Shown here piece after piece: positions 4,037 to 23,329 of a stretch of DNA of 64,000 bases. The DNA is from Candidatus Liptonbacteria bacterium (lineage in GTDB: Bacteria; Patescibacteriota; Minisyncoccia; UBA6257; 2-01-FULL-56-20), in contig JACPLI010000014.1 in NCBI GenBank assembly GCA_016186635.1, forward strand, positions 804-64,803, in the 5' to 3' direction. The notes under the pieces are model-generated. The model did not search any database and was not told the origin of the DNA. It saw only the letters and a list, made by a program, of their open reading frames with translations. How positions within the stretch are numbered: the stretch's first letter is position 1; the number at the start of each line of letters is the position of its first letter. The translations under genes and the position numbers were made by a program.

Positions 4037-6610
4037 CTAAATCACCACCACGCCAGCGACTCTATCGCCGGAGTTGAGGTTCATAATCCGCACGCCCTGC
4101 GCGGAGCGGCCCGTCTGGCGGACGCTTTTGAGCTCCGTGCGGATGACCTGCCCCTTTGCCGAGAGCGCGAGGAGTTCCGTCTCCTCGCCGAGGACGATGC
4201 CCGCAACCACCTTTCCCGTCTTCTCCGTCACCTTCGCCGTGCGAATCCCGGAGCCGCCGCGGTGCTGGGTTTTGTATTCCTTGAGCGGCGTCCGCTTGCC
4301 GAACCCCTTTTCCATCACCGCGAGGAGCTCCGCCGTGTCGCTCTTCTTCACCACGTCGAACCCCGCAACCGCGTCGCCGTGGCGAAGCCGGATGGCGCGC
4401 ACGCCCGCGGCGCCGCGCCCCATGGGCCTCGCCTGCGACTCCGCAAAGCGGATGGACTGGCCCTTCTCCGTCACGAGCACCACTTGGTCATCGCCCTTCG
4501 AGAGCCGGACCCACTTCAGCATGTCGCCTTTTTTTCCGCCGGAGGCGGATCCGGAGGTCCCTTTCCCGCCAGAGGCGGGTCCGCCTCGGGCGGAGGCGGA
4601 GAGCTTCATCCCGATAATCCCCGTGCGCCGGATATTTTCAAAGTCCTTCAAAGCGGTTTTCTTTATCATGCCGTTTTTGGTCACCATCACGAGATAGCGA
4701 TGAGCGATGAGTGATGAGTGATGAGTCTCCGATGCCTTGTTTCTTGCCCCTTGCTCGCCCCGTGGCGAAGCTGTACGGGGTTCCTTGTTACTCGATGGCA
4801 CATTGACGATCGCGCTTATGTTCTCGTCTGCGGGAATCTCAAGGAAATTGTGAATCGCTTTCCCCTTCGCGGTGCGGCTCGCGGCGGGAATCTCATACGC
4901 GCGCGTTTCGAATACTCTCCCGCGGCCGGTGAAGAAGAGTATCCGGTCGTGCGTGTTCGCGTGGAAGAAGTGCGAGAGGAAATCCTCCTCGGCGACATCA
5001 GACCCAATAAGCCCCTTGCCGCCACGCCGCTGGGCTTTGAAGGTGTCGGGCGGGAGGCGCTTCACATACCCCGACGCGGAGAAGGTAATAATTGCCTCTT
5101 CCTCGGGCACGAGGTCCTCGTCGGTCATCTCCTTCAAGGCATGCGCGACCACGTGCGTCCGGCGCGCCTCGCCATACTTCGCCTTGAGTTCCATGAGCTC
5201 CTTTTTCACCACCTCAAGCATCCGCGTGGGACTCTTCAAAATGAGCGTGAGTTCCTTGATGAGCGTGCGTTTTTCTTTAAGCTCGGCTTCGATTTTCTGC
5301 CGCTCCAATGCCGCGAGCGTCTGGAGCTTCATTTCCAAAATCGCGGCTGCCTGCGCCTCCGAGAGCGTGAAGTGCTTCATCAAGTTCGCCCTCGCGTCCT
5401 CGCGGTCCTTCGATTTCTTGATGGTGGCAATCACTTTGTCTATCGCATCAAGCGCCTTTGCGAGCCCCTCCAAAATATGCGCCCGCTCCTCCGCCCGCTT
5501 CAAGTCAAACTGCGTGCGGCGCTTCACCACCTCCCGCCGGTGCGCGACGTACGCGAGGAGCATCTCCTTCAAAGAGAAGAGTTCCGGCTGGATGCCGTCC
5601 CGCAAGGCAATCATGTTGAAATGGAAATCCTTCTGGAGGTCGGAGTGCTGGTAGAGCTGGTTTAAGATTTTCTGCGGCGCGGCATCGGACTTTAGTTCCA
5701 CCACGATGCGGAGCCCCTCGCGGTCGGACTCGTCGCGAAGGTCGCGGATGCCCTCGATTCTCTTCTCCTGCACAAGTTCCGCGATGTGCTTCACGAGCTC
5801 GGACTTGTTCACCTGGTAGGGAATCTCCGTAATCACGATGTCGAACCCCGCGCGCGTACTCTCTCCCTTCTTTCGCTCCACAATCTCCGCCTTCGCCCGG
5901 GTCGTGACCGCCCCCCGTCCCGTCGCGTATGCCGCCTTCACTGCCGCGCGGTCGTAAATCACGCCGCCCGTGGGAAAATCCGGCCCCTTCACATATTCGA
6001 GCAAATCCTCCGCCGCGGCGTTCGGCTTTTCGATAAGGAGCAGGGTTGCATCCACCACCTCCACCAAGTTGTGCGGCGGGATTGAGGTTGCCATCCCCAC
6101 CGCAATGCCCAAGGTGCCGTTCACGAGGAGGTTCGGAACCTTCGCAGGAAGCACCTTCGGCTCATCGCGGGTCGCATCGTAGTTCGGCTGCCAGTCCACC
6201 GTGTCTTTCTCGATATCAAACAGCATCTCCTCCGCGACTTTCGAGAGGCGCGCCTCCGTGTACCGCATCGCGGCGGGAGAATCCCCGTCCTGTGAACCAA
6301 AATTACCCTGGCCCCACACAAGGGGGTATCGCATGGAGAAGTCCTGCGCCATCCGCGCCAGCGTGTCGTAAATCGCCACGTCGCCGTGCGGGTGGTACTT
6401 CGCCATCGTCTCGCCCACCACGTTTGCCGACTTCCTGAATTTCGCGAGATGCGTGAGCCCTATGGACCACATGGTCCACAGCACCCTCCGGTGCACCGGC
6501 TTCAGCCCGTCGCGCACGTCCGGCAGGGCGCGCGCGACAATCACTGACATCGCGTAGTCGAGGTAGGATTCCTTTAACTCACTGGTGATTTCCCGTTTTT
6601 CGATATTCAT
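4037..6610 (-). CDS. gyrA: DNA gyrase subunit A
   Basis: 857 aa; N-terminal EITSELKESYLDYAMSVIVARALPDVRDGLKPVHRRVLW and catalytic-Tyr region AAMRYTEARL are GyrA hallmarks; C-terminal beta-pinwheel repeats. Confidence 0.95.
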   Translation of the reverse strand: MNIEKREITSELKESYLDYAMSVIVARALPDVRDGLKPVHRRVLWTMWSIGLTHLAKFRKSANVVGETMAKYHPHGDVAIYDTLARMAQDFSMRYPLVWGQGNFGSQDGDSPAAMRYTEARLSKVAEEMLFDIEKDTVDWQPNYDATRDEPKVLPAKVPNLLVNGTLGIAVGMATSIPPHNLVEVVDATLLLIEKPNAAAEDLLEYVKGPDFPTGGVIYDRAAVKAAYATGRGAVTTRAKAEIVERKKGESTRAGFDIVITEIPYQVNKSELVKHIAELVQEKRIEGIRDLRDESDREGLRIVVELKSDAAPQKILNQLYQHSDLQKDFHFNMIALRDGIQPELFSLKEMLLAYVAHRREVVKRRTQFDLKRAEERAHILEGLAKALDAIDKVIATIKKSKDREDARANLMKHFTLSEAQAAAILEMKLQTLAALERQKIEAELKEKRTLIKELTLILKSPTRMLEVVKKELMELKAKYGEARRTHVVAHALKEMTDEDLVPEEEAIITFSASGYVKRLPPDTFKAQRRGGKGLIGSDVAEEDFLSHFFHANTHDRILFFTGRGRVFETRAYEIPAASRTAKGKAIHNFLEIPADENISAIVNVPSSNKEPRTASPRGEQGARNKASETHHSSLIAHRYLVMVTKNGMIKKTALKDFENIRRTGIIGMKLSASARGGPASGGKGTSGSASGGKKGDMLKWVRLSKGDDQVVLVTEKGQSIRFAESQARPMGRGAAGVRAIRLRHGDAVAGFDVVKKSDTAELLAVMEKGFGKRTPLKEYKTQHRGGSGIRTAKVTEKTGKVVAGIVLGEETELLALSAKGQVIRTELKSVRQTGRSAQGVRIMNLNSGDRVAGVVVI
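4531..4600. repeat. GC-rich hairpin element inside gyrA (family CCGCCnnaGGCGGaTCC / TCCGCCTCGGGCGGA)
   Basis: ccgccggaggcggatcc ... cgccagaggcgggtccgcctcgggcggaggcgga; same motifs intergenic at 7629 and 33391; here translated as SASARGGPASGGKGTSGSASGGKKG. Confidence 0.55.
4697..4727. repeat. heptamer tandem array (GATGAGY)x4 in frame within gyrA
   Basis: gcgatgagcgatgagtgatgagtgatgagtc; minus-strand reading gives ETHHSSLIAHRY inside GyrA. Confidence 0.8.
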
Positions 6611-7766: not shown

Positions 7767-8873
7767 TTGCGAAACATGCCAGAAGCACAAAACAAGGCGG
7801 CGCAGGCAACCCTCCTTGAAACGCTCAAGGCGGCAATCCCCGCGGGCGAGTGGCCGAAGGAGGGAAGCGTCACTGAAGTGAAACTGCTCCGCAAGACGGA
7901 CCGCAAGGTGTTTTTCGACATGGGCAAATTCGGCACCGGCATCGTGTGGGGCGCGGAGCTGATGAACGCGCGGGAGATGGTGAAGAACCTAGAGTCAGGC
8001 GGCACGTGCCTTGCAAAAATCAAGTTGCTCGAATCAGACGACGGCTACATCGAACTTTCGCTCGCTGAAGCAGGCAGGGAACGGCTCTGGCAGCAGGCGA
8101 AGGAACTCCAAGAATCGGGCGAGCTTGCGAAGGTGAAGGTGGTGGGCGCGAATGCCGGGGGGCTCACCGCAATGCTCTTTGACCTCAAGGCGTTCCTGCC
8201 CGTCTCCCAGCTTTCGCAGGAACACTACCCGCGCGTCGAGGACGGCGACCGGCAAAAAATTTTTGACGAGCTCAAGAAATTTATCGGGCAGGAGCTCACG
8301 GTGAAGGTGATTGACGTGAACCCCCGCCACAACAAGTTCATTCTCTCGGAGCGCGAAGTGGTGAGCGGGAATGTGAAGGAGCTCCTGAAGAAATACAAAG
8401 CGGGCGACGATATCCAGGGGCTCGTGACGGGCATCGCTGACTTCGGCGCGTTTGTGCGCTTCGTGGACGAGCCGCAACTCGAGGGACTTATCCATATCTC
8501 CGAACTCTCGCACGCGCTCGTCGAGAACCCGAAAGACGTGCTCAAAGTGGACGAGACGGTGAAGGTGAAAATCATTGACATCCGCGAGGACGGGCGCGTG
8601 TTCCTCTCTTTGAAAGCGCTCCAGCCCGACCCGTGGAGCACACTCGGCGACCGGTTTAAGAAAGGAGGCGAGGTGGAGGGCAAGGGCTATAAGCTCAACC
8701 CCTTCGGCGCGATGGTGGACCTCGGCGGCGGGATTCAGGGCACCGTGCACATCGCGGAGTTCGAGTCTGCGGACGCGATGAAACAGTTGCTCACGCCCGG
8801 CAGCGCGCGCACGTTCGTCATCGAAGCGGTGAAGCCGGAGGAGAAGAGGATTGTGCTCAAGTTGAAGAAATAA
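7767..8873 (+). CDS. rpsA: 30S ribosomal protein S1 (four S1 domains)
   Basis: repeated S1 RNA-binding motifs e.g. GLVTGIADFGAFVRFVDEPQLEGLIHISELSHALVENPKDVLKVDETVKVKIIDI; TATAAT 10 nt before ATG. Confidence 0.8.
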   Translation: MRNMPEAQNKAAQATLLETLKAAIPAGEWPKEGSVTEVKLLRKTDRKVFFDMGKFGTGIVWGAELMNAREMVKNLESGGTCLAKIKLLESDDGYIELSLAEAGRERLWQQAKELQESGELAKVKVVGANAGGLTAMLFDLKAFLPVSQLSQEHYPRVEDGDRQKIFDELKKFIGQELTVKVIDVNPRHNKFILSEREVVSGNVKELLKKYKAGDDIQGLVTGIADFGAFVRFVDEPQLEGLIHISELSHALVENPKDVLKVDETVKVKIIDIREDGRVFLSLKALQPDPWSTLGDRFKKGGEVEGKGYKLNPFGAMVDLGGGIQGTVHIAEFESADAMKQLLTPGSARTFVIEAVKPEEKRIVLKLKK

Positions 8874-8922
8874 CCCCTCGATATCCAATAGGTTTCCAAA
8901 AGGTTCCCGATTGATTTCTACA

Positions 8923-8963
8923 ATTTAGCAAACTACACGCTATAGCGTGTAGTTTGCTAAATT
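8923..8963. repeat. perfect palindrome aatttagcaaactacacgc-tat-gcgtgtagtttgctaaatt
   Basis: 19-bp arms, 50 nt after rpsA stop; related copy at 11531-11572. Confidence 0.65.
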
Positions 8964-9080
8964 GCACAGTCATACAGTTGGTCATCCCAAGAACACCCGG
9001 GGCGGCTTTGGATTCACTCACGTATTGTCGTGTATTGAAGGATTGAAAGAAAACATGTAAGCTGGGTACTGCTAACGCAT

Positions 9081-9488
9081 GCCGCGGTAGCTCAGTGGTA
9101 GAGCATTCGCCTGAACTCTTCGGGCACCGGTTCAGTAATGAGCCGGAGAAAACTGGGTGAATTCGGGGGAACTTCTTTACTTTAAGAACAACCCCGAGCC
9201 AATCCTTCGCTAAAGCTATGGATTGCAAGCAAGCTACATGAGAAGGCTTGCCTGCTGTAGCCTTCGGCGAAGGCAGGTGTAGAGACTATCCCTTCGGGGA
9301 GTACTCTCCGACATGGGTCGGAGCGGAAGCGCCCAGCTCCATGCCAGATTTCAGACACCAGAAATCAGCTATCGGACAATGCATCCGATATCTGAAATCC
9401 GAGATCTAATTTCTGAACGTGGATGATGATATAGTCCAAACTCGCAAGGAAGAGCGATTGGTCGGGTGTTCGATTCACCCCCGCGGCA
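9081..9488 (+). tRNA. tRNA-Phe (anticodon GAA) interrupted by a group I intron; exons about 9081-9112 and 9449-9488
   Basis: exon1 GCCGCGG-TA-GCTC-AGTGGTA-GAGC-A-TTCGC-CT; exon2 GAAGA-GCGAT-TGGTC-GGGTG-TTCGATT-CACCC-CCGCGGC-A; joined gives a canonical cloverleaf with loop CTGAAGA; no CCA encoded. Confidence 0.75.
9113..9448 (+). other. group I intron in tRNA anticodon loop (after U33), ~336 nt, no ORF
   Basis: 5' exon ends in U and its GCCU can pair with intron GGGC (P1 with U.G); P7-like strands AGACTA (approx 9288) and TAGTC (9432-9436); last intron nt G. Confidence 0.65.
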
Positions 9489-9490
9489 CA

Positions 9491-9979
9491 TTATAACGAG
9501 GATAAAAACTCTTGCACGAATGCAGGACTGTTAATTATCAAAGCGCAGTTCTGTAAATTATACCCCTTATATCCCTCAAGCTGCTTGATAACACTGTAAA
9601 TCTGCCGTTTGCTATTTGGCCTGTTAGTGACAAATACCCCGGTGTTATTATCCATTCTTTTATAATCGTGAATCAGGACGCACCGTAAATGCTTGTACAG
9701 AACATTTAAAGAGGAGCCGCACTGTTGCGGACGCTTTTGGTGCAACTGAGAGCATTGAAGCCTACTAATCTGTTTTTTTCTGAGGACGTCATTTTCCTTT
9801 AACTGACGCAGGGTCGTGGGCATATTCTCTTTGATATACCGATCTACACACCCATTAGTAGATAAACTTTCCATAAAACAAAAGGCTATGAGAAGCGCTG
9901 GAACGGGAAGGTTGAGCTCTGAGTACTGGAGTCCCGAAAGAATTTTTCTCGCCTCTCTTTTCAATCTTGACACATCCAT
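9491..9979 (-). CDS. hypothetical protein in AT-rich islet
   Basis: 162-aa ORF inside low-GC segment 9490-10150 flanked by tRNA genes; no motif recognised; may be a fragment of acquired DNA. Confidence 0.3.
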   Translation of the reverse strand: MDVSRLKREARKILSGLQYSELNLPVPALLIAFCFMESLSTNGCVDRYIKENMPTTLRQLKENDVLRKKQISRLQCSQLHQKRPQQCGSSLNVLYKHLRCVLIHDYKRMDNNTGVFVTNRPNSKRQIYSVIKQLEGYKGYNLQNCALIINSPAFVQEFLSSL

Positions 9980-10197
9980 AAGCCAGTTCAGTACCTGTAA
10001 GGACCAGAACCTTGTTCGGGAAGATTATCGAGCCGGTCCCAGTCCTCTTGAGAAAAGTCGTTATAGTAGTCAAACCCAATCCAAAGAAAAAAGATCACGA
10101 ATGCGATGACTACTAACACGGTTATCGCGAGATCCTTGATTCTCCTCATCATTTCTTGATGTTAACACTTCGCCCACACAAAATTTGTAAGCATCTG

Positions 10198-10268
10198 TCG
10201 GGGAGCCGAGAATCGAACTCGGACTACATGCTCCCAAAGCATGCGTACTACCACTATACGACTCCCCG
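10198..10268 (-). tRNA. tRNA-Pro (anticodon TGG)
   Basis: minus-strand cloverleaf CGGGGAG-TC-GTAT-AGTGGTA-GTAC-G-CATGC-TTTGGGA-GCATG-TAGT-CCGAG-TTCGATT-CTCGG-CTCCCCG-A. Confidence 0.85.
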
Positions 10269-10369
10269 GTGTATTTCTAGCGGGGCAAGAAGGACTCGTG
10301 CTACCGTTACACTACAGTCCGAAGCGCCACTTCAAATTACGCCTTTTTTCGGCTAGAATCAAACCGCTT

Positions 10370-10445
10370 GTCCCCGTAGCTTAACGGATAAAGCGGCTCC
10401 CTTCTAAGGAGTAGACTGCAGGTTCAAGTCCTGCCGGGGACACCA
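10370..10445 (+). tRNA. tRNA-Arg (anticodon TCT), CCA encoded
   Basis: GTCCCCG-TA-GCTT-AACGGATA-AAGC-G-GCTCC-CTTCTAA-GGAGT-AGACT-GCAGG-TTCAAGT-CCTGC-CGGGGAC-A-CCA. Confidence 0.9.
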
Positions 10446-11961: not shown

Positions 11962-12672
11962 ATGCTGGTTATACCCATAAAAACTCGCGTGTTCAGAGAA
12001 GGAGAAAAACTCTTCCCTTTCATAACGCGCTACATTAAAAAAGTTCCGGAGCGCTCGGTCCTTGTAATCACTTCAAAAATTCTCGCGCTTTCTGAAAAAA
12101 GAACTGCGCCTATAAAGAATTCTCGCACGAAAGCTGAACTCATCCGCAAAGAAAGCGAGGTGGCCATTCGCACCAAATACGTGTGGCTCACGATAAAAGA
12201 CGGGATGATGATGGCCTCGGCGGGGATTGATGAATCAAACGCGAACGGCAAACTGATACTCCTCCCCCATGACAGCTTCGCCGCCGCGCACGCACTCCGC
12301 AACGAATTGCGCCGACTCTACCGCATCAAACATCTTGGGGTGCTCATCACCGATAGCCGCACAATACCGCTTCGCCTAGGAGTAACGGGCGTAGCGGTGG
12401 GGTATGCGGGATTCCGGGGCGTGAGAGACTATCGCGGCGCTCCCGACATTTTCGGGAGAAAGTTCAAATTCGCCCGCACGAATGTCGCGGACAGTTTAGC
12501 AACCGCCGCCACGCTCCTTATGGGAGAAGGAAACGAGCAACAGCCGCTGGCACTTATTCAAAATGCGCCGATAGAATTTTGCGAAAAAGTGGCCCTCCGA
12601 GAAACGCACATAGACATTAACGAGGATATGTATAAACCGCTCTTCGTGCGTCTTCCGAAATCGCGCAGGTGA
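11962..12672 (+). CDS. CofE-like protein (F420-0:gamma-glutamyl ligase family fold)
   Basis: 236 aa; MMASAGIDESNANG and GVLITDSRTIPLRLGVTGVAVGYAGF match the conserved CofE/PF01996 core motifs. Confidence 0.7.
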   Translation: MLVIPIKTRVFREGEKLFPFITRYIKKVPERSVLVITSKILALSEKRTAPIKNSRTKAELIRKESEVAIRTKYVWLTIKDGMMMASAGIDESNANGKLILLPHDSFAAAHALRNELRRLYRIKHLGVLITDSRTIPLRLGVTGVAVGYAGFRGVRDYRGAPDIFGRKFKFARTNVADSLATAATLLMGEGNEQQPLALIQNAPIEFCEKVALRETHIDINEDMYKPLFVRLPKSRR

Positions 12673-12676
12673 TTAT

Positions 12677-13693
12677 TCACCGCGCCATGCTTTCCAACAC
12701 TTCAAGATAAAGTTTCTCAACTATTTTCTCCTGCGCACGCCCGGTCGCCACGTAGTGGTCGAGCCCCGGCGCGGCGTTCACTTCAAGCACCCAGTACTCG
12801 CCGGGCTTCTCGGTAATGCTTCCCTTCACCATAATATCCACCCCGCAAAGGCGGAGCCCCATGTCTTTCGTAAGACGCACCGCAATCCGCCGGAATGCCG
12901 GGTGCACATCCTTCGTCACATCCACGGAATCCCCTCCCGTCGAGAGGTTCGCGTTATCAAGCAAATAGATGCGCGCGCCCTCCGGAGGGACGGAGCGGAG
13001 CGTAAGTCCCTGGCGCCGGAGCTTCAGCGCAATGCGCGGGTCGCCGAACTTGAGGCGCGTGTCGCGGCTCGCGGCGACGAACCGGCGCTGTTTTTCTTTA
13101 AGAAGTTGCCGTATGGTGCGCCTCCCGTCCCCCACCACGTGGAGCGGGATGCGTTCGTAGGCGGAGATGACGCGCCCGTCGAGCACGACCACGCGGTAGT
13201 CGGTGCCTTTGACCGGGCGCTGCACGAGCGCCACGCGGTCGCCCGCGAAGCTCGCGCGCATGGCGCGGAAAAACTCCGCGCGCGTATGCGCGAACGCGAC
13301 ATTCGTTCCCTGACTCCCGCTGTTCGGCTTCACCACGACCGGGAACCCGAGTGTGCGCGCGTAGCGGTACGCCGCATCAATGCCGCGGCGCGAACCGATG
13401 GCTTTGCACCAATCATGGGAGAAAAACGCTTTTCCCGGAATCACGGGGTAGCCCATCCGCCGCATAAAAAAATTGGCGTAGTCTTTGTCTTTCGCGATGT
13501 CGGATGCGCCGAGCGGGTTCAGGTCGAGACTCGAATAGCGAAAATAGCGCTTCCTGCCGTTTTTGAAAAGAATCTGCCCGACGATATTCCACTCGGGCTC
13601 GAGCACCACCCGCGCGCCGATTTGCGGGGCGATTTTTTTGAGCACCTTCCCCAAAAGCGGGGCTCGGTAATTCGTTCGCATCTTACTTATCAA
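12677..13693 (-). CDS. ATP-grasp family ligase (RimK/cyanophycin-synthetase-like)
   Basis: 338 aa; FPVVVKPNSGSQGTNV ... RVALVQRPVKGTDYRVVVLDGRVISAYERI ... EVNAAPGL are ATP-grasp motifs. Confidence 0.7.
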   Translation of the reverse strand: MISKMRTNYRAPLLGKVLKKIAPQIGARVVLEPEWNIVGQILFKNGRKRYFRYSSLDLNPLGASDIAKDKDYANFFMRRMGYPVIPGKAFFSHDWCKAIGSRRGIDAAYRYARTLGFPVVVKPNSGSQGTNVAFAHTRAEFFRAMRASFAGDRVALVQRPVKGTDYRVVVLDGRVISAYERIPLHVVGDGRRTIRQLLKEKQRRFVAASRDTRLKFGDPRIALKLRRQGLTLRSVPPEGARIYLLDNANLSTGGDSVDVTKDVHPAFRRIAVRLTKDMGLRLCGVDIMVKGSITEKPGEYWVLEVNAAPGLDHYVATGRAQEKIVEKLYLEVLESMAR

Positions 13694-14644: not shown

Positions 14645-14770
14645 CAAGTGGCAAGTGGCAAGTAGTATGTAGCGAGTAGTATGGAGCAGGGAATAAGAAA
14701 AGTAAACGCGAATAAGCAAAAAAACCGCTTCGCTTCGCTATTCGCTACTTGCTACCCGCTACTTGCTCAC
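14645..14770. repeat. inverted pair of heptamer arrays (GCAAGTG)n ... (CTACTTGC)n forming a long hairpin
   Basis: gcaagtggcaagtggcaagtagtatgtagcgagtag ... ctacttgctacccgctacttgctcac; between glyA stop and folD start. Confidence 0.6.
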
Positions 14771-16086
14771 GCATCTATCCCCGGCACCGGGAACTTCGTC
14801 GCAAGCGCTTTCACGCGTTCGCGGATTTTCTTCACTGTTTCATGCCCCTCAAGCGTTTTCTCAAAATCTCTCACCGCCTGCGCGCGCTTCTCTTTCTCAT
14901 CCGGCAACGGAGTTGTCGCGAATGCCTTCACCACTTCCGCAATCCATGTGCCGATGACTACCATTTCCTTTTCCTTCATACCGCGCGTGGTGAGTGCTGG
15001 TGTTCCCAAGCGGATGCCCGAAGGATAAAACGGCACCGAAGGGTCGTTCGGCACCGTCGTGAAGTTCGTGTTGATTTCGGCGGCTTCAAGCGCCTTCGCG
15101 ACAAAGACCCCGCGCCCCGGCCCGAAGGGGCGTAGGTCAATGAGCATGAGGTGGGTTTCGGTCCCACCCGAGACAAGTTTCAACCCCTCTTTAATAAGTG
15201 TCGCGGCAAGAATCGAGGCATTTTTCACAATTTGCGCGGCATAGTCCTTAAATTCCGGCCGCAAGGCCTCCCCCAACGTCACGGCAATCCCCGCAATCGT
15301 GTGCTCGTGAGGCCCACCCTGCATGCCCGGGAACACCGCTTTGTCTATTTTCTCCCGCAGTTCTTCCTTGCAGAAAATCAGCGCCCCCCGCGGCCCGCGC
15401 AACGTCTTGTGCGTGGTAGTCGTCACCACATCCGTTGAGGGGAAAGGCGAGGGGTGTGCGCCGCCGATGACGAGCCCCGAGATATGCGAAATATCCGCCA
15501 TCGAAATTGCGCCGATGGAGCGCGCAATCAAAGCCATTTTTTCAAAATCCACCTTCCGCGGGTACGCGGTAAATCCGGAGAGGATGAGCTGCGGCTTCGT
15601 TTTCTCCGCGAGCTTTTGAATCGCGTCGTAGTCGAGCACTTCCTTCTCCGCATCGAGCGGATAAAACACGAAGTTGAAAAGCTTCCCCGAGGCGTTCACT
15701 GGCGAGCCGTGCGTGAGGTGCCCGCCCTGGTCGAGCCGCAAGGACATGATGGTGTCTCCGGGTTTCAATAACCCGAGGTACACCGCAAGGTTCGCGGGGC
15801 TCCCCGAATACGGCTGGACGTTTACATGATACCCTTCGGCATTGAACGCTTTCAAGGCGCGCGCCTGCGCAAGACGCTCCACCTCGTCAATGTGGACATT
15901 CCCGCTGTAGTAGCGGCGCCCCGGGTACCCCTCGGCATACTTGTCGTTCAAAATGCTCCCCGCCGCCTCAAGCGCGGCGGCAGAGGCGTAGTTCTCCGAA
16001 GGAATCATTTCGAGTCCCTCTTTCTGCCGTTTTTTCTCGCGCTCGATGATGGCGAAAACTTCGGGGTCTTGGGATGCGAGATTCAT
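14767..16086 (-). CDS. glyA: serine hydroxymethyltransferase
   Basis: LEMIPSENY, PLP-site THKTLRGPRG, GMQGGPHEHTIAG; start at ATG 16086 (MNLASQDPEV); upstream track extension is translation of AGTAATT repeats. Confidence 0.95.
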   Translation of the reverse strand: MNLASQDPEVFAIIEREKKRQKEGLEMIPSENYASAAALEAAGSILNDKYAEGYPGRRYYSGNVHIDEVERLAQARALKAFNAEGYHVNVQPYSGSPANLAVYLGLLKPGDTIMSLRLDQGGHLTHGSPVNASGKLFNFVFYPLDAEKEVLDYDAIQKLAEKTKPQLILSGFTAYPRKVDFEKMALIARSIGAISMADISHISGLVIGGAHPSPFPSTDVVTTTTHKTLRGPRGALIFCKEELREKIDKAVFPGMQGGPHEHTIAGIAVTLGEALRPEFKDYAAQIVKNASILAATLIKEGLKLVSGGTETHLMLIDLRPFGPGRGVFVAKALEAAEINTNFTTVPNDPSVPFYPSGIRLGTPALTTRGMKEKEMVVIGTWIAEVVKAFATTPLPDEKEKRAQAVRDFEKTLEGHETVKKIRERVKALATKFPVPGIDA

Positions 16087-16160
16087 AGTAATTGAGTAAT
16101 TAGTAATCAAGTAATTGGGGACGAATTACATATTTACCCAATTACATAATTACAGACGCG
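16087..16160. repeat. heptamer arrays (AGTAATT)x4 and (AATTACA)x3 abutting glyA start codon
   Basis: agtaattgagtaattagtaatcaagtaattgggg...gaattacatatttacccaattacataattacag. Confidence 0.75.
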
Positions 16161-18190: not shown

Positions 18191-20026
18191 ATGTCGAATC
18201 TCACTAAAAACATTTTCTGGGCAATCGCCACGCTGTTCGCCATCTCCTTCGTGTTTTCCATGTTCGCGGACACCGCAGGCGCGCCGGAGAAATTAAGTTT
18301 GAGCCAGCTCGCGCAGAAAATTGCGGCGGGGGAGGTGAAGGAAATTACCGTAAACGGCGACGACCTTGTCATCAAACTCCAGGACGGGAAGCCCGCGTCG
18401 GCAAAAAAGGAGAGTGAGGCGGGGCTCACAGAAACCTTCAAAAACCTCGGCGTGGAGCCGGCGATGCTCCAGCGCGTGAACGTGAGCGTACAGAGCCAGT
18501 CGGGGTGGCAGTTTTGGGCAGGAGTCCTTATTCCCACGCTCCTCCCCATCATTCTCATCGGCTTTTTCTTCTGGCTCATGTTCCGGCAGGCGCGCACGGG
18601 CGTAAACCAGGCGTTCAGCTTCGGGCGCTCGAATATCCGCCTCACCACCTTTGACAAGGAAAAAATCACGTTTAAGGACGTGGCAGGACTCAAGGAAGCA
18701 AAAGAAGAGCTTGTGGAAATCGTGGACTTTTTGAAAAATCCGAAAAAGTTCCTTGACCTCGGCGCGCGCATTCCCCGCGGCGTGCTCCTCATGGGTCCTC
18801 CGGGCACGGGGAAAACCTTAATTGCAAGGGCAACCGCGGGCGAGAGCAACGTCCCCTTCTTCCATATCTCGGCGTCGGAATTCGTGGAGATGTTCGTGGG
18901 AGTTGGGGCTTCGCGGACACGGGACGCCTTCACGGTCGCAAAGAAAGCCGCGCCCGCAATCCTTTTTATTGACGAGATTGACGCCGTCGGGCGCCAGCGC
19001 GGCGCGGGGCTCGGAGGCGGGAACGACGAACGCGAGCAAACCTTGAACCAGATTTTGGTGGAGCTTGACGGCTTCGACCGCGATACGAGGGTAATAATTT
19101 TGGCGGCTACGAACCGACCTGATATTTTGGACCCCGCACTCCTCCGCCCCGGACGATTCGACCGGCGCGTGGTCCTCGACCTTCCCGACTTGAACGACCG
19201 CGAGGCAATACTCAAAATCCACGCGAGGGAGAAAACGCTCGCGGGCGCGGTCGACCTCCGGAAAGTCGCCGTGCGCACGCCGGGATTCTCCGGCGCTGAC
19301 CTCGCTAACTTAATGAATGAAGGCGCCATCTTCGCCGCGCGGCAGAATAAGAAGCATATCTCGCAGGACGACCTCTTCAGCTCGGTTGAAAAAGTGCTCC
19401 TCGGCCCCGAGCGAAAAAGCCGCGCCATCAGCCCCCGCGAAAAAGAAATCACCGCCTACCACGAAGCAGGGCATGCCCTGACCGCCGCCTCCCTCAAAGA
19501 CGCGGACCCCGTGCACAAAATTTCCATCATCAGCCGCGGCATGGCGGGGGGATATACGATGAAGCTCCCTCTCGAAGACCAGCATCTCCGCACGCGCCAG
19601 CAGTTCCTCGCCGACCTCGCCATGATGCTCGGCGGCTACGTGTCGGAAAAACTTATGTTTGGAGATATCTCCACCGGCGCCTCGAGCGACCTCAAGGAAG
19701 CGACGCACCTCGCGCGGAAGCTCGTTACCCGCTACGGCATGAGCGAAAAACTGGGGCCGCAAACCTTCGGGAAAACCGAAGAGCTCGTCTTCCTCGGGCG
19801 CGAAATCGCCGTGGAGAAAGATTACTCCGAAAAAGTCGCGGCGGAGATAGACCATGAAGTGCGGTCATTTATCTCCCGCGCGCGCGCCACGGCGGAGAAA
19901 CTCCTCAAAACCCACAAAGCCGCGCTCAAAGCAATCGCCACAACGCTCGTCGAGAAAGAAACGCTTGAGCAGGAAGAATTCCTCGCGGTTTTAAAACCCT
20001 TCAAAATTAAGCCGGTTGCAGCATAG
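18191..20026 (+). CDS. ftsH: ATP-dependent zinc metalloprotease FtsH
   Basis: 611 aa; Walker [13 protein letters not shown] region, zinc motif HEAGHAL; two N-terminal TM helices. Confidence 0.95.
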
Positions 20027-23030: not shown

Positions 23031-23145
23031 AACTCGTTGTACGTTTTCGGTTTCGCCGCCCGTATCGCTTCACGTTGACGTCTTACATATGCCCACACCG
23101 ATACGGGCTACGACACCGTCACCGCTCAACACCAAGTAAAATAAG

Positions 23146-23210
23146 TGGGCCAGGAAGGACTCGAACCTTCGATCCTCTTGGTATAAGCAAGATGCTTTAG
23201 CCGCTAAGTC
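23146..23210 (-). pseudogene. tRNA-like fragment (anticodon arm with loop CTTATAC, T-arm, acceptor 3' strand) lacking matching 5' half
   Basis: minus strand ...GCA-TCTTG-CTTATAC-CAAGA-GGATC-GAAGG-TTCGAGT-CCTTC-CTGGCCC-A; complementary GGGCCAG occurs only ~520 nt upstream (approx 23663-23669). Confidence 0.4.
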
Positions 23211-23256
23211 CCGACGCTCCGGTCGGGACCCCGACCCTGCAAGGCGTCGGGGCTAC
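23197..23256. repeat. double-hairpin element R copy 1 (CCCCGAC..GTCGGGG / TCCCGACC-GGAGC-GTCGGGA / CTTAGCGGCtAAAGCA)
   Basis: near-identical unit at 23591-23660; related hairpin at 28706-28740. Confidence 0.6.
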
Positions 23257-23258
23257 TG

Positions 23259-23329
23259 TGGGCGCACTAGGAATCGGACCTAGGTCGGGCGTGTATAAGA
23301 CGCCTGCTTTGCCATTAAGCTATGCGCCC
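23259..23329 (-). tRNA. tRNA-Ile with rare anticodon TAT (UAU)
   Basis: GGGCGCA-TA-GCTT-AATGGCA-AAGC-A-GGCGT-CTTATAC-ACGCC-CGAC-CTAGG-TCCGATT-CCTAG-TGCGCCC-A; unusual T-loop TCCGATT. Confidence 0.75.

Follow-up and report, generated by a model that had tools for sequence, protein, structure and literature searches.

A tRNA-Phe(GAA) gene of Candidatus Liptonbacteria split by an IA-like group I intron, and the wider family of such introns among Patescibacteria

Group I introns in bacterial tRNA genes have long been represented by a classical IC3 set in tRNA-Leu(UAA), tRNA-fMet, tRNA-Arg and tRNA-Ile. The locus described here lies in a 64-kb stretch of Candidatus Liptonbacteria DNA (64,000 nucleotides (nt) of contig JACPLI010000014.1, hereafter the window), where an original prediction, made from the sequence alone, had placed a tRNA-Phe(GAA) gene split by a group I intron. 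That prediction named the classical set as the known bacterial cases, which is correct for IC3 but out of date as a list, since the portions of a preprint available as text (Williams 2020, bioRxiv 10.1101/2020.01.27.920355) raise the known types of tRNA and intron site from 4 to 21. A survey of complete genomes by Nakagawa et al. (2026, mSystems, PMC13011429), 95 of them from Patescibacteria and 4,934 from bacteria, includes, in its Table 1 and a supplementary table, one Phe(GAA) intron at site 33/34, which is 211 nt long and comes from the Doudnabacteria genome GCA_016699995.1. This Phe intron appears in the tables only, without structure, splicing assay or distribution. In that complete genome every tool counts a single tRNA-Phe gene (PMC13011429), so the split gene is the only one it has. 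No earlier tRNA-Phe group I intron was found in the literature beyond this case, although the type table of Williams 2020 is an image that is unreadable for Phe. The tRNA-Phe 33/34 intron is therefore already published as a type, and the locus in the window is a further member of it. What is added here is that the family is far more common than the single published case suggests, together with a clean comparison with an orthologous intron-less gene.

The locus is very probably the orthologous chromosomal tRNA-Phe(GAA) gene of Candidatus Liptonbacteria, a lineage of the Patescibacteria or candidate phyla radiation (CPR), and carries, between its U33 and G34, a 336-nt, IA-like, protein-less group I intron that is predicted to splice itself out and leave a 72-nt tRNA-Phe. 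It consists of three parts:

Positions 9081-9112, forward strand: exon 1 of tRNA-Phe(GAA), GCCGCGGTAGCTCAGTGGTAGAGCATTCGCCT, with the acceptor 5' strand, D arm, anticodon-stem 5' strand, C32 and U33.
Positions 9113-9448, forward strand: group I intron of 336 nt, IA-like, with a full-length match to Rfam RF00028 and homologous to 99 unique listed tRNA-Phe introns.
Positions 9449-9488, forward strand: exon 2 of tRNA-Phe(GAA), GAAGAGCGATTGGTCGGGTGTTCGATTCACCCCCGCGGCA, with G34, A35, A36, G37 and A38, the anticodon-stem 3' strand, variable loop, T arm, acceptor 3' strand and A73.

Joined together, the two halves form a cloverleaf with the anticodon loop CUGAAGA and G37, as had been predicted. CCA is not encoded, and exon 2 stops at the discriminator A73. 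ARAGORN, with introns allowed, called a tRNA-Phe(gaa) with a 336-nt intron, whereas its default run over the whole window missed the gene and found seven other tRNA genes, as did Rfam at its gathering thresholds. Intron mode sets the junction one base to the right of 9112/9113. Since GAA starts both the intron and exon 2, the letters alone permit the junction to slide by 0-3 nt. It was placed at 9112/9113 and 9448/9449, corresponding to 33/34, because of the U9112.G9122 wobble in helix P1, the terminal G9448 and the pairing P10. With this placement, U33 (9112) is the last nucleotide 5' of the splice site, and exon 1 corresponds to nt 1-32 of the tRNA-Phe(GAA) at the related intron-less locus L009. 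The joined exons and the L009 gene are identical in 72 of 72 nt, including G37 and a U27-U43 mismatch. The exon boundaries and the spliced product are therefore those of the normal tRNA-Phe of the lineage, and an intron-less allele in a relative, which the original prediction had proposed looking for, has exactly the sequence of the predicted ligated exons.

The gene order around this site is kept in relatives, where gyrA, a small open reading frame (ORF), a metallo-beta-lactamase-fold gene, the gene of an S1-domain protein and tRNA-Phe follow each other, with tRNA-Pro/Arg(/Val) nearby. The orthologous loci, ordered by how close their S1 protein is to that of the window, are as follows:

L002, S1 88 %: split tRNA-Phe with a 228-nt intron, Intron_gpI 61.1 bits.
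L006, S1 85 %: split tRNA-Phe with a 195-nt intron, Intron_gpI 50.9 bits; the tRNA-Phe(intron)/tRNA-Arg/tRNA-Pro block is inverted relative to S1 (5189-5704, compared with 9081-10445 in the window).
L009, S1 80 %: intron-less tRNA-Phe at the same place after the S1 gene.
L129, S1 64 %: intron-less tRNA-Phe.
L130 and L131, S1 61 %: intron-less tRNA-Phe.

Judging from this pattern of presence and absence, the intron was gained or lost within the lineage, and within its own clade the window intron looks vertically inherited. The S1 protein of the window matches one from a Candidatus Liptonbacteria metagenome-assembled genome (MAG) at 100 % identity, and its close homologues all come from Liptonbacteria, Paceibacterota or Patescibacteria. 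The window is CPR chromosome and not phage or plasmid.

Some further differences were seen at these loci. CCA is encoded after tRNA-Phe in L002, L009 and L130 and is not encoded in the window or in L006. About 25 nt just upstream of the split gene (GTAAGCTGGGTACTGCTAACGCA; window 9050-9080) are conserved in L002 (5840-5877) and L006 (5430-5470, reverse strand) and not in the intron-less L009. The conservation may come from relatedness alone, or the stretch may serve as promoter or leader. A promoter scan of 8850-9600 found nothing, and its two terminator-like matches were no more than expected by chance. Between the S1 stop codon and tRNA-Phe, a 44-nt palindrome at 8921-8964 is made of two 22-nt arms without a spacer (CAATTTAGCAAACTACACGCTA followed by TAGCGTGTAGTTTGCTAAATTG). 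It had only spurious matches to miRNA models and may act as a terminator-like hairpin or bind a protein.

The intervening sequence was identified as a group I intron by the Rfam covariance model Intron_gpI (RF00028), which matched 9103-9458 from end to end (model positions 1-253) with 49.9 bits and E-values of 1.3e-11 in an 801-nt region and 1e-9 in the whole window. The full core is thus present, as the original prediction had anticipated for such a search. This is the sole group I match in the window. At E <= 0.01, no other Rfam matches were found there besides the seven tRNA genes and one weak sub-threshold match opposite a tRNA-Arg gene. The orthologous introns of L002 and L006 both score above the gathering score of the model. 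The expected insert of about 336 nt, beginning after U33 and ending in G, corresponds to 9113-9448 with the terminal nucleotide G9448. It had also been described as ORF-less, which agrees with the search result that none of the three internal ORFs of 40-58 amino acids has a Pfam match (E <= 1). No homing endonuclease gene is therefore found in the 336-nt intron, and because such a gene is lacking, the intron cannot home by itself.

To place the intron among its homologues, species-representative genomes were scanned with the pattern ATAGTCC N6-20 G GAARA N14 GTTCRANT, which combines the P7 3' strand, the terminal G, the GAA anticodon and the T loop, and at least 119 stretches were returned. 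Among them are at least 102 tRNA-Phe(GAA) genes split after U33, with the 5' half 195-336 nt upstream, and at least 99 unique introns, whose median length is about 216 nt; the U33 site and the terminal G of these listed homologues were preconditions of the pattern and of the script that located the exons and are not independent evidence. The MAGs behind all 102 listed split genes carry the label Patescibacteria or no more than 'bacterium'. Groups named among them are Saccharibacteria, Paceibacterota, Doudna-, Yanofsky-, Wolfe-, Harrison-, Berkel-, Kerfeld-, Lipton-, Taylor-, Giovannoni-, Wildermuth-, Jorgensen- and Andersenbacteria, and Minisyncoccia. About 17 pattern matches outside Patescibacteria (Prevotella, Arcobacter, Methanothrix, Larkinella and others) had no tRNA around them and were rejected as chance matches, their number being of the order of a rough specificity estimate. 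The listed introns fall into 84 clusters at under 85 % identity. The window intron, which ties for the longest among them, shares 78-82 % identity with its own small clade and 54-68 % with the rest. The tRNA-Phe 33/34 intron family is old and diverse. The expectation that an intron at this site of tRNA-Phe would be unusual does not hold, given the published Phe(GAA) 33/34 case (PMC13011429) and the at least 102 species-level genomes, and for this phylum the tRNA-Phe intron is not unusual.

The base at position 37 varies within this family. G37, in the loop CUGAAGA, is found in the window, in L009, L129, L130 and L131 and in 92 of the 102 listed family members, while the usual bacterial base is A37. 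The remaining ten listed members carry A37; all of them have the ..GACU exon type, and they include MAGs named Berkelbacteria and Kerfeldbacteria. G37 in the tRNA-Phe of the lineage suggests a modification of the m1G37 type and not of the i6A37 type. It had been noted beforehand as an archaeal or eukaryal likeness. The base itself is present, as stated, but it is a trait of the lineage's tRNA-Phe that is shared with intron-less relatives and is unrelated to the intron.

The window intron aligns along its whole core with 44 other family members. Its secondary structure was derived from the window sequence (P1, P2, P3, P4, P5, P6, P6a, P7 and P8), and pairs were then counted on a structure-blind MAFFT alignment of these 45 sequences, including the window. 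The elements, all on the forward strand, are the following:

9109-9125: P1, in which GCCU and, across the splice site, GAA (9109-9115) pair with the guide UUCGGGC (9119-9125), with the loop CUC and the wobble U33(9112).G9122.
9116-9121: P10 guide CUCUUC, 6 bp with GAAGAG of exon 2 (9449-9454), overlapping the P1 3' strand.
9127-9146: P2 hairpin, 8 bp with a GUAA (GNRA) loop.
9153-9159: P3 5' strand CUGGGUG, partner of CGCCCAG at 9330-9336.
9163-9197: P4 (9163-9168/9192-9197) with the enclosed P5 (9173-9177/9184-9188).
9199-9277: P6 with a long extension, its closing pairs enclosing 71 nt; one extended hairpin in the fold.
9284-9288: P7 5' strand GACUA (the G-binding helix), partner of UAGUC at 9432-9436.
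9289-9325: hairpins P7.1 (9289-9300, UCCC-UUCG-GGGA) and P7.2 (9304-9325), between P7 and the P3 3' strand.
9330-9336: P3 3' strand CGCCCAG, pairing with the P3 5' strand.
9338-9423: P8 with an expansion of about 86 nt, from the fold and the comparison with homologues.
9424-9436: junction J8/7 UGAUGAUA and the P7 3' strand UAGUC, in invariant or nearly invariant columns.
9437-9448: 3' tail CAAACUCGCAAG, ending in G9448, without a P9 hairpin; UCGC at 9442-9445 can pair with GCGA of exon 2 at 9454-9457.

The comparative evidence supports this structure. Standard pairs fill 92.9 % of the cells, compared to 75.5 % with shuffled columns and 33-52 % when the partners are slid by 1-3 columns. Cells changed on both sides number 452, compared to 142 with shuffling (none of 500 shuffles reached 452) and 62-140 with slid partners. 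Covarying pairs were found in P2 (8/8), P5 (5/5), P6a (7/7), P8 (3/6) and the outer part of P3 (3/7). P3 is paired in 99.7 % of its cells, and P4 is paired in 99.6 % and nearly invariant. In the P2 loop, the G and the last A are invariant. The alignment has 57 invariant and 30 nearly invariant columns, and the invariant ones cluster in J3/4-P4, P6, J6/7-P7 and J8/7-P7'. The P7 strands GACUA and UAGUC, which had been recognized beforehand as P7-like AGACTA and TAGTC, are invariant in 45 of 45 sequences, an invariance that gives no covariation evidence. P7.1 and P7.2 show compensatory changes within members of their subtype, for example CCC/GGG, CUC/GAG and CCU/AGG.

The helices that involve the exons are of particular relevance for the splice sites. 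P1 covaries between exon and guide in the combinations CCCU/GGGG, GCCU/GGGC and GACU/GGUC (C-G in 24 sequences with G-C in 19 at one pair, C-G in 38 with A-U in 7 at another), and its U.G wobble is found in 44 of the 45 aligned sequences. The P1 of the original prediction, GCCU:GGGC with a U.G pair, is part of this helix. A P10 of 5-6 bp is present in 93 of the 102 listed genes and covaries with exon positions 37-39, where GAAGAG goes with the guide (N)UCUUY and GAAAAU with AUUUUC. Because P1 and P10 covary with the exon, the splice sites can be placed without relying on the covariance model. Minimum free energy (MFE) folding of 9105-9458 gave a z-score of -4.68 against 100 shuffles and recovered P1-P6, P7.2 and P8. 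P7 is absent from this fold because it is pseudoknotted and therefore beyond MFE folding. All structural details of the earlier interpretation are thus supported.

The subgroup is given as IA-like on the basis of the predicted 37-nt P7.1/P7.2 insert between the P7 5' strand and the P3 3' strand. The features of IC3 are not found: this insert is present, and only 12 nt (9437-9448) follow P7, with no hairpin within the intron. The assignment agrees with the published statement that the tRNA introns of Patescibacteria are IA and never IC (PMC13011429).

By analogy with the established group I mechanism, from which the splicing chemistry and its independence of proteins are taken, the gene would be transcribed into a 408-nt precursor in which the intron folds into the P3-P8 catalytic core. 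The guide UUCGGGC would form P1 with the exon sequence GCCU and the first three intron nucleotides, placing U33 in the U.G wobble. An external guanosine bound in P7 would then attack 3' of U33. In the second step, the guide CUCUUC would pair with GAAGAG of exon 2 (P10) while the terminal G9448 takes the guanosine site, and the 3'-OH of U33 would attack after G9448 and join U33 to G34. The product would be the 72-nt tRNA-Phe, to which CCA is added afterwards.

Some features set the family or the window copy apart. Across the family (loci L010-L128), the tRNA-Phe introns have no P9 hairpin, and only 8-17 nt follow P7. In many members, this 3' tail pairs with the anticodon-stem 3' strand (exon positions 37-44) over up to 8 bp, so that the 3' splice site lies in a G-G-A-A loop; the pairing of UCAGCUUC with GAGGCUGG is an example. 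The longest tail helix has a mean length of 5.97 bp with its own exon, compared to 3.95 bp with exons of different sequence. In the window, tail and exon can form only 4 bp (UCGC/GCGA), which do not conflict with P10.

The peripheral domains are unevenly distributed. A conserved P6 extension of about 70-80 nt is found in about 11 of the 99 listed introns, namely in the window (9203-9273) and in L051, L063, L040, L125, L015, L119, L112, L086, L108 and L110. Its consensus is GCUAYGGAUUGCAAGC ... GGCUUGCCUGCYGUAGC, no matching Rfam family was found for it, and its carriers span different exon types and both P7.1 types. The nearest relatives of the window copy (L002, L006 and L033) are 85-97 % identical to it in P1-P5 and 74-97 % in P7.1/7.2, yet have short, unrelated P6 hairpins. 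This mosaic distribution therefore indicates repeated loss or recombination. A recent horizontal transfer of the extension is not supported, since its identity to distant copies (72-79 %) is barely higher than the 62-75 % of the core, and either repeated loss or an older recombination may account for the distribution. The P8 expansion of about 86 nt contains internal inverted repeats and has no counterpart in the other 98 listed introns, whose P8 regions measure about 15-50 nt. A repeat or miniature inverted-repeat transposable element (MITE) was considered as its origin and rejected, as BLAST found no second copy in the window or in 130 fetched loci. In the MFE fold, the extra length of both P6 and P8 forms continuous terminal, peripheral hairpins.

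Taken together, these features may tentatively define the tRNA-Phe introns as a distinct architectural variant of group I, although this interpretation is held with clearly less confidence than the identification of the intron itself. Such a variant would have no P9 of its own and would instead use the helix between tail and anticodon stem (up to 8 bp and stackable with P10), and its peripheral domains would be exchangeable through repeated loss or recombination between CPR lineages. If this is true, the window copy, with its P6 extension and its unique 86-nt P8 insertion, is the most expanded known member. It would also mean that tRNA-Phe is among the most common split tRNAs in Patescibacteria and has been greatly under-counted by the survey of complete genomes.

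Some observations weigh against a self-splicing, functional tRNA-Phe gene. Protein-free self-splicing in vitro has been shown only for the related Asn and Asp 35/36 introns (PMC13011429). The Intron_gpI score is 0.1 bit under the gathering score of 50, the window copy combines the longest P8 among the listed family with an extended P6, either of which could slow folding, and its tRNA carries the U27-U43 mismatch. The view is furthermore limited to 64 kb, so that an intact second tRNA-Phe could lie elsewhere in the MAG. The score, the P6 and P8 expansions and the limited view would fit a dead locus, in which a tRNA-Phe pseudogene is broken by an intron that does not splice and an intact second gene does the work. 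This is nevertheless very improbable. The mismatch is also present in the intron-less allele of L009, which looks functional and to which the exons are identical, and the site is the syntenic, orthologous tRNA-Phe position in seven related genomes. All columns that are invariant across the 45 aligned homologues, of which the window is one row, are intact in the window copy, and the expansions are confined to terminal P6 and P8, where they fold as continuous hairpins. No second tRNA-Phe was found within the 64-kb window with ARAGORN or Rfam, and published table rows list one tRNA-Phe per complete Patescibacteria genome (PMC13011429).

A more serious alternative, though still an unlikely one, is that the ribozyme is intact and does not splice autonomously in the cell, either because it needs a protein or chaperone or because it regulates the supply of tRNA-Phe, as has been speculated for Patescibacteria introns (PMC13011429). 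The absence of P9, with only 8-17 nt after P7, is in line with this, and in many members the pairing of the tail with the anticodon stem competes partly with P10 and could make the second step condition-dependent. However, no candidate cofactor gene is linked to the locus, where the neighbours are housekeeping genes or have no Pfam match, nothing pointing to a sensor element was found, and the related Asn and Asp introns splice without protein (PMC13011429). An element of another type in the anticodon loop, such as an archaeal bulge-helix-bulge (BHB) intron, a group II intron or a transposon or MITE, has a negligible probability. G37 in tRNA-Phe, as in archaea, and the inverted repeats within the P8 expansion could be read in this way, but the full-length group I covariance match and the comparative support from P1 to P8 refute it. 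Apart from the weak sub-threshold match, the window has no Rfam match at E <= 0.01 that is neither tRNA nor group I, the P8 expansion is single-copy in the window and the fetched loci, and the 33/34 site, the U before the splice site and the terminal G fit the rules of group I and not those of BHB introns. A self-splicing group I intron in a functional tRNA-Phe gene therefore remains the preferred explanation.

The split gene has consequences for genome annotation. Because its 49.9 bits fall under the gathering score, a default Rfam scan misses the intron, and since default tRNA finders miss the gene as well, the MAG would be scored as lacking tRNA-Phe. Such a miss skews estimates of completeness and encourages claims that CPR bacteria have 'missing essential genes'. 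The locus is a well-resolved case with an intron-less orthologue and adds to the recent observation that Patescibacteria retain group I introns in spite of their reduced genomes. Behind the one published Phe case stands a family found in at least 102 species-level genomes. If the split gene is the sole tRNA-Phe, as it is in the complete genome from Doudnabacteria, all phenylalanine codons depend on ribozyme activity. Furthermore, the alignment of 99 diverse introns (195-336 nt) is useful for ribozyme structure, as it contains a minimal P9-less core with optional P6 and P8 modules.

The neighbouring genes located in the window are housekeeping genes of bacterial type:

4037-6610: gyrA.
7776-8873: gene of the S1-domain protein.
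14767-16110: SHMT gene.
18191-20026: FtsH gene.

Other observations in the window and its relatives concern different genes. At 23145-23329 on the reverse strand, two adjacent tRNA genes are both called as tRNA-Ile(UAU), an anticodon uncommon in bacteria; the first scores 65.6 bits, and the second, with an imperfect acceptor stem, 38.1 bits. The gene at 11962-12672 strongly matches the Pfam family F420-0:gamma-glutamyl ligase (PF01996, E = 1.6e-39) and adjoins an ATP-grasp (RimK-like) gene at 12677-13693. L006 has this pair too, and its presence is unexpected in a reduced CPR genome. In L131, whose tRNA-Phe is intron-less, gyrA (1-989, ENA ERZ27254752) encodes 1252 amino acids with intein and LAGLIDADG Pfam matches and is thus a CPR gyrA that contains an intein.

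The Doudnabacteria intron of GCA_016699995.1 is one of the closest known systems to the window intron. Both lie in tRNA-Phe after U33, come from the same phylum and have no ORF, and by eye they share the motifs GCCU/GAA(C)UCUUCGGGC (the slash marking the splice site), GGGUGAAYUCGGGG, CCCGAGCCAAGCC, GGUGUAGAGACUA and GAUGAUAUAGUCCAAA as well as GAAGAGCG in exon 2. Two Doudnabacteria loci that are near-identical to the published copy (L128 and L036) fall within the family collected here. The Doudnabacteria copy differs by its length of 211 nt, a P7.1 made of a single hairpin with the loop UGAGCCCAACAAUAAU and short P6 and P8 helices, whereas the window copy of 336 nt has the two hairpins P7.1 and P7.2, a long P6 and a unique P8.

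The Asn and Asp 35/36 introns of Patescibacteria (PMC13011429) belong to the same phylum and likewise have an IA-like core and a P7.1 insert, mostly without a homing endonuclease. They share the core motifs GGGUGAAUUG..GGGAA, CCAAGCC and GAGACUA, and their P7.1 loop GUGAGCCYAACAAUAAUC is also found in most Phe introns. They differ in the tRNA, in the site (35/36 compared to 33/34) and in having a P9 hairpin after P7, where the Phe family has a tail of 8-17 nt. Some Asn introns carry HNH endonuclease genes, unlike the window intron.

The classical IC3 introns are found in cyanobacterial and plastid tRNA-Leu(UAA) (34/35), cyanobacterial tRNA-fMet (33/34), Azoarcus tRNA-Ile (36/37) and Agrobacterium tRNA-Arg (36/37). 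Like the window intron, they are small group I ribozymes in the anticodon loop of a bacterial tRNA, with a P1 formed with the anticodon-stem 5' strand, a U.G pair at the splice site and a terminal G, and the site of the tRNA-fMet intron is the same as in the window. In the structures from Azoarcus and Anabaena, the classical bacterial tRNA introns have a P9 hairpin and no P7.1/P7.2 insert. The window intron is distinguished from them by its 37-nt P7.1/P7.2 insert and by the absence of P9.

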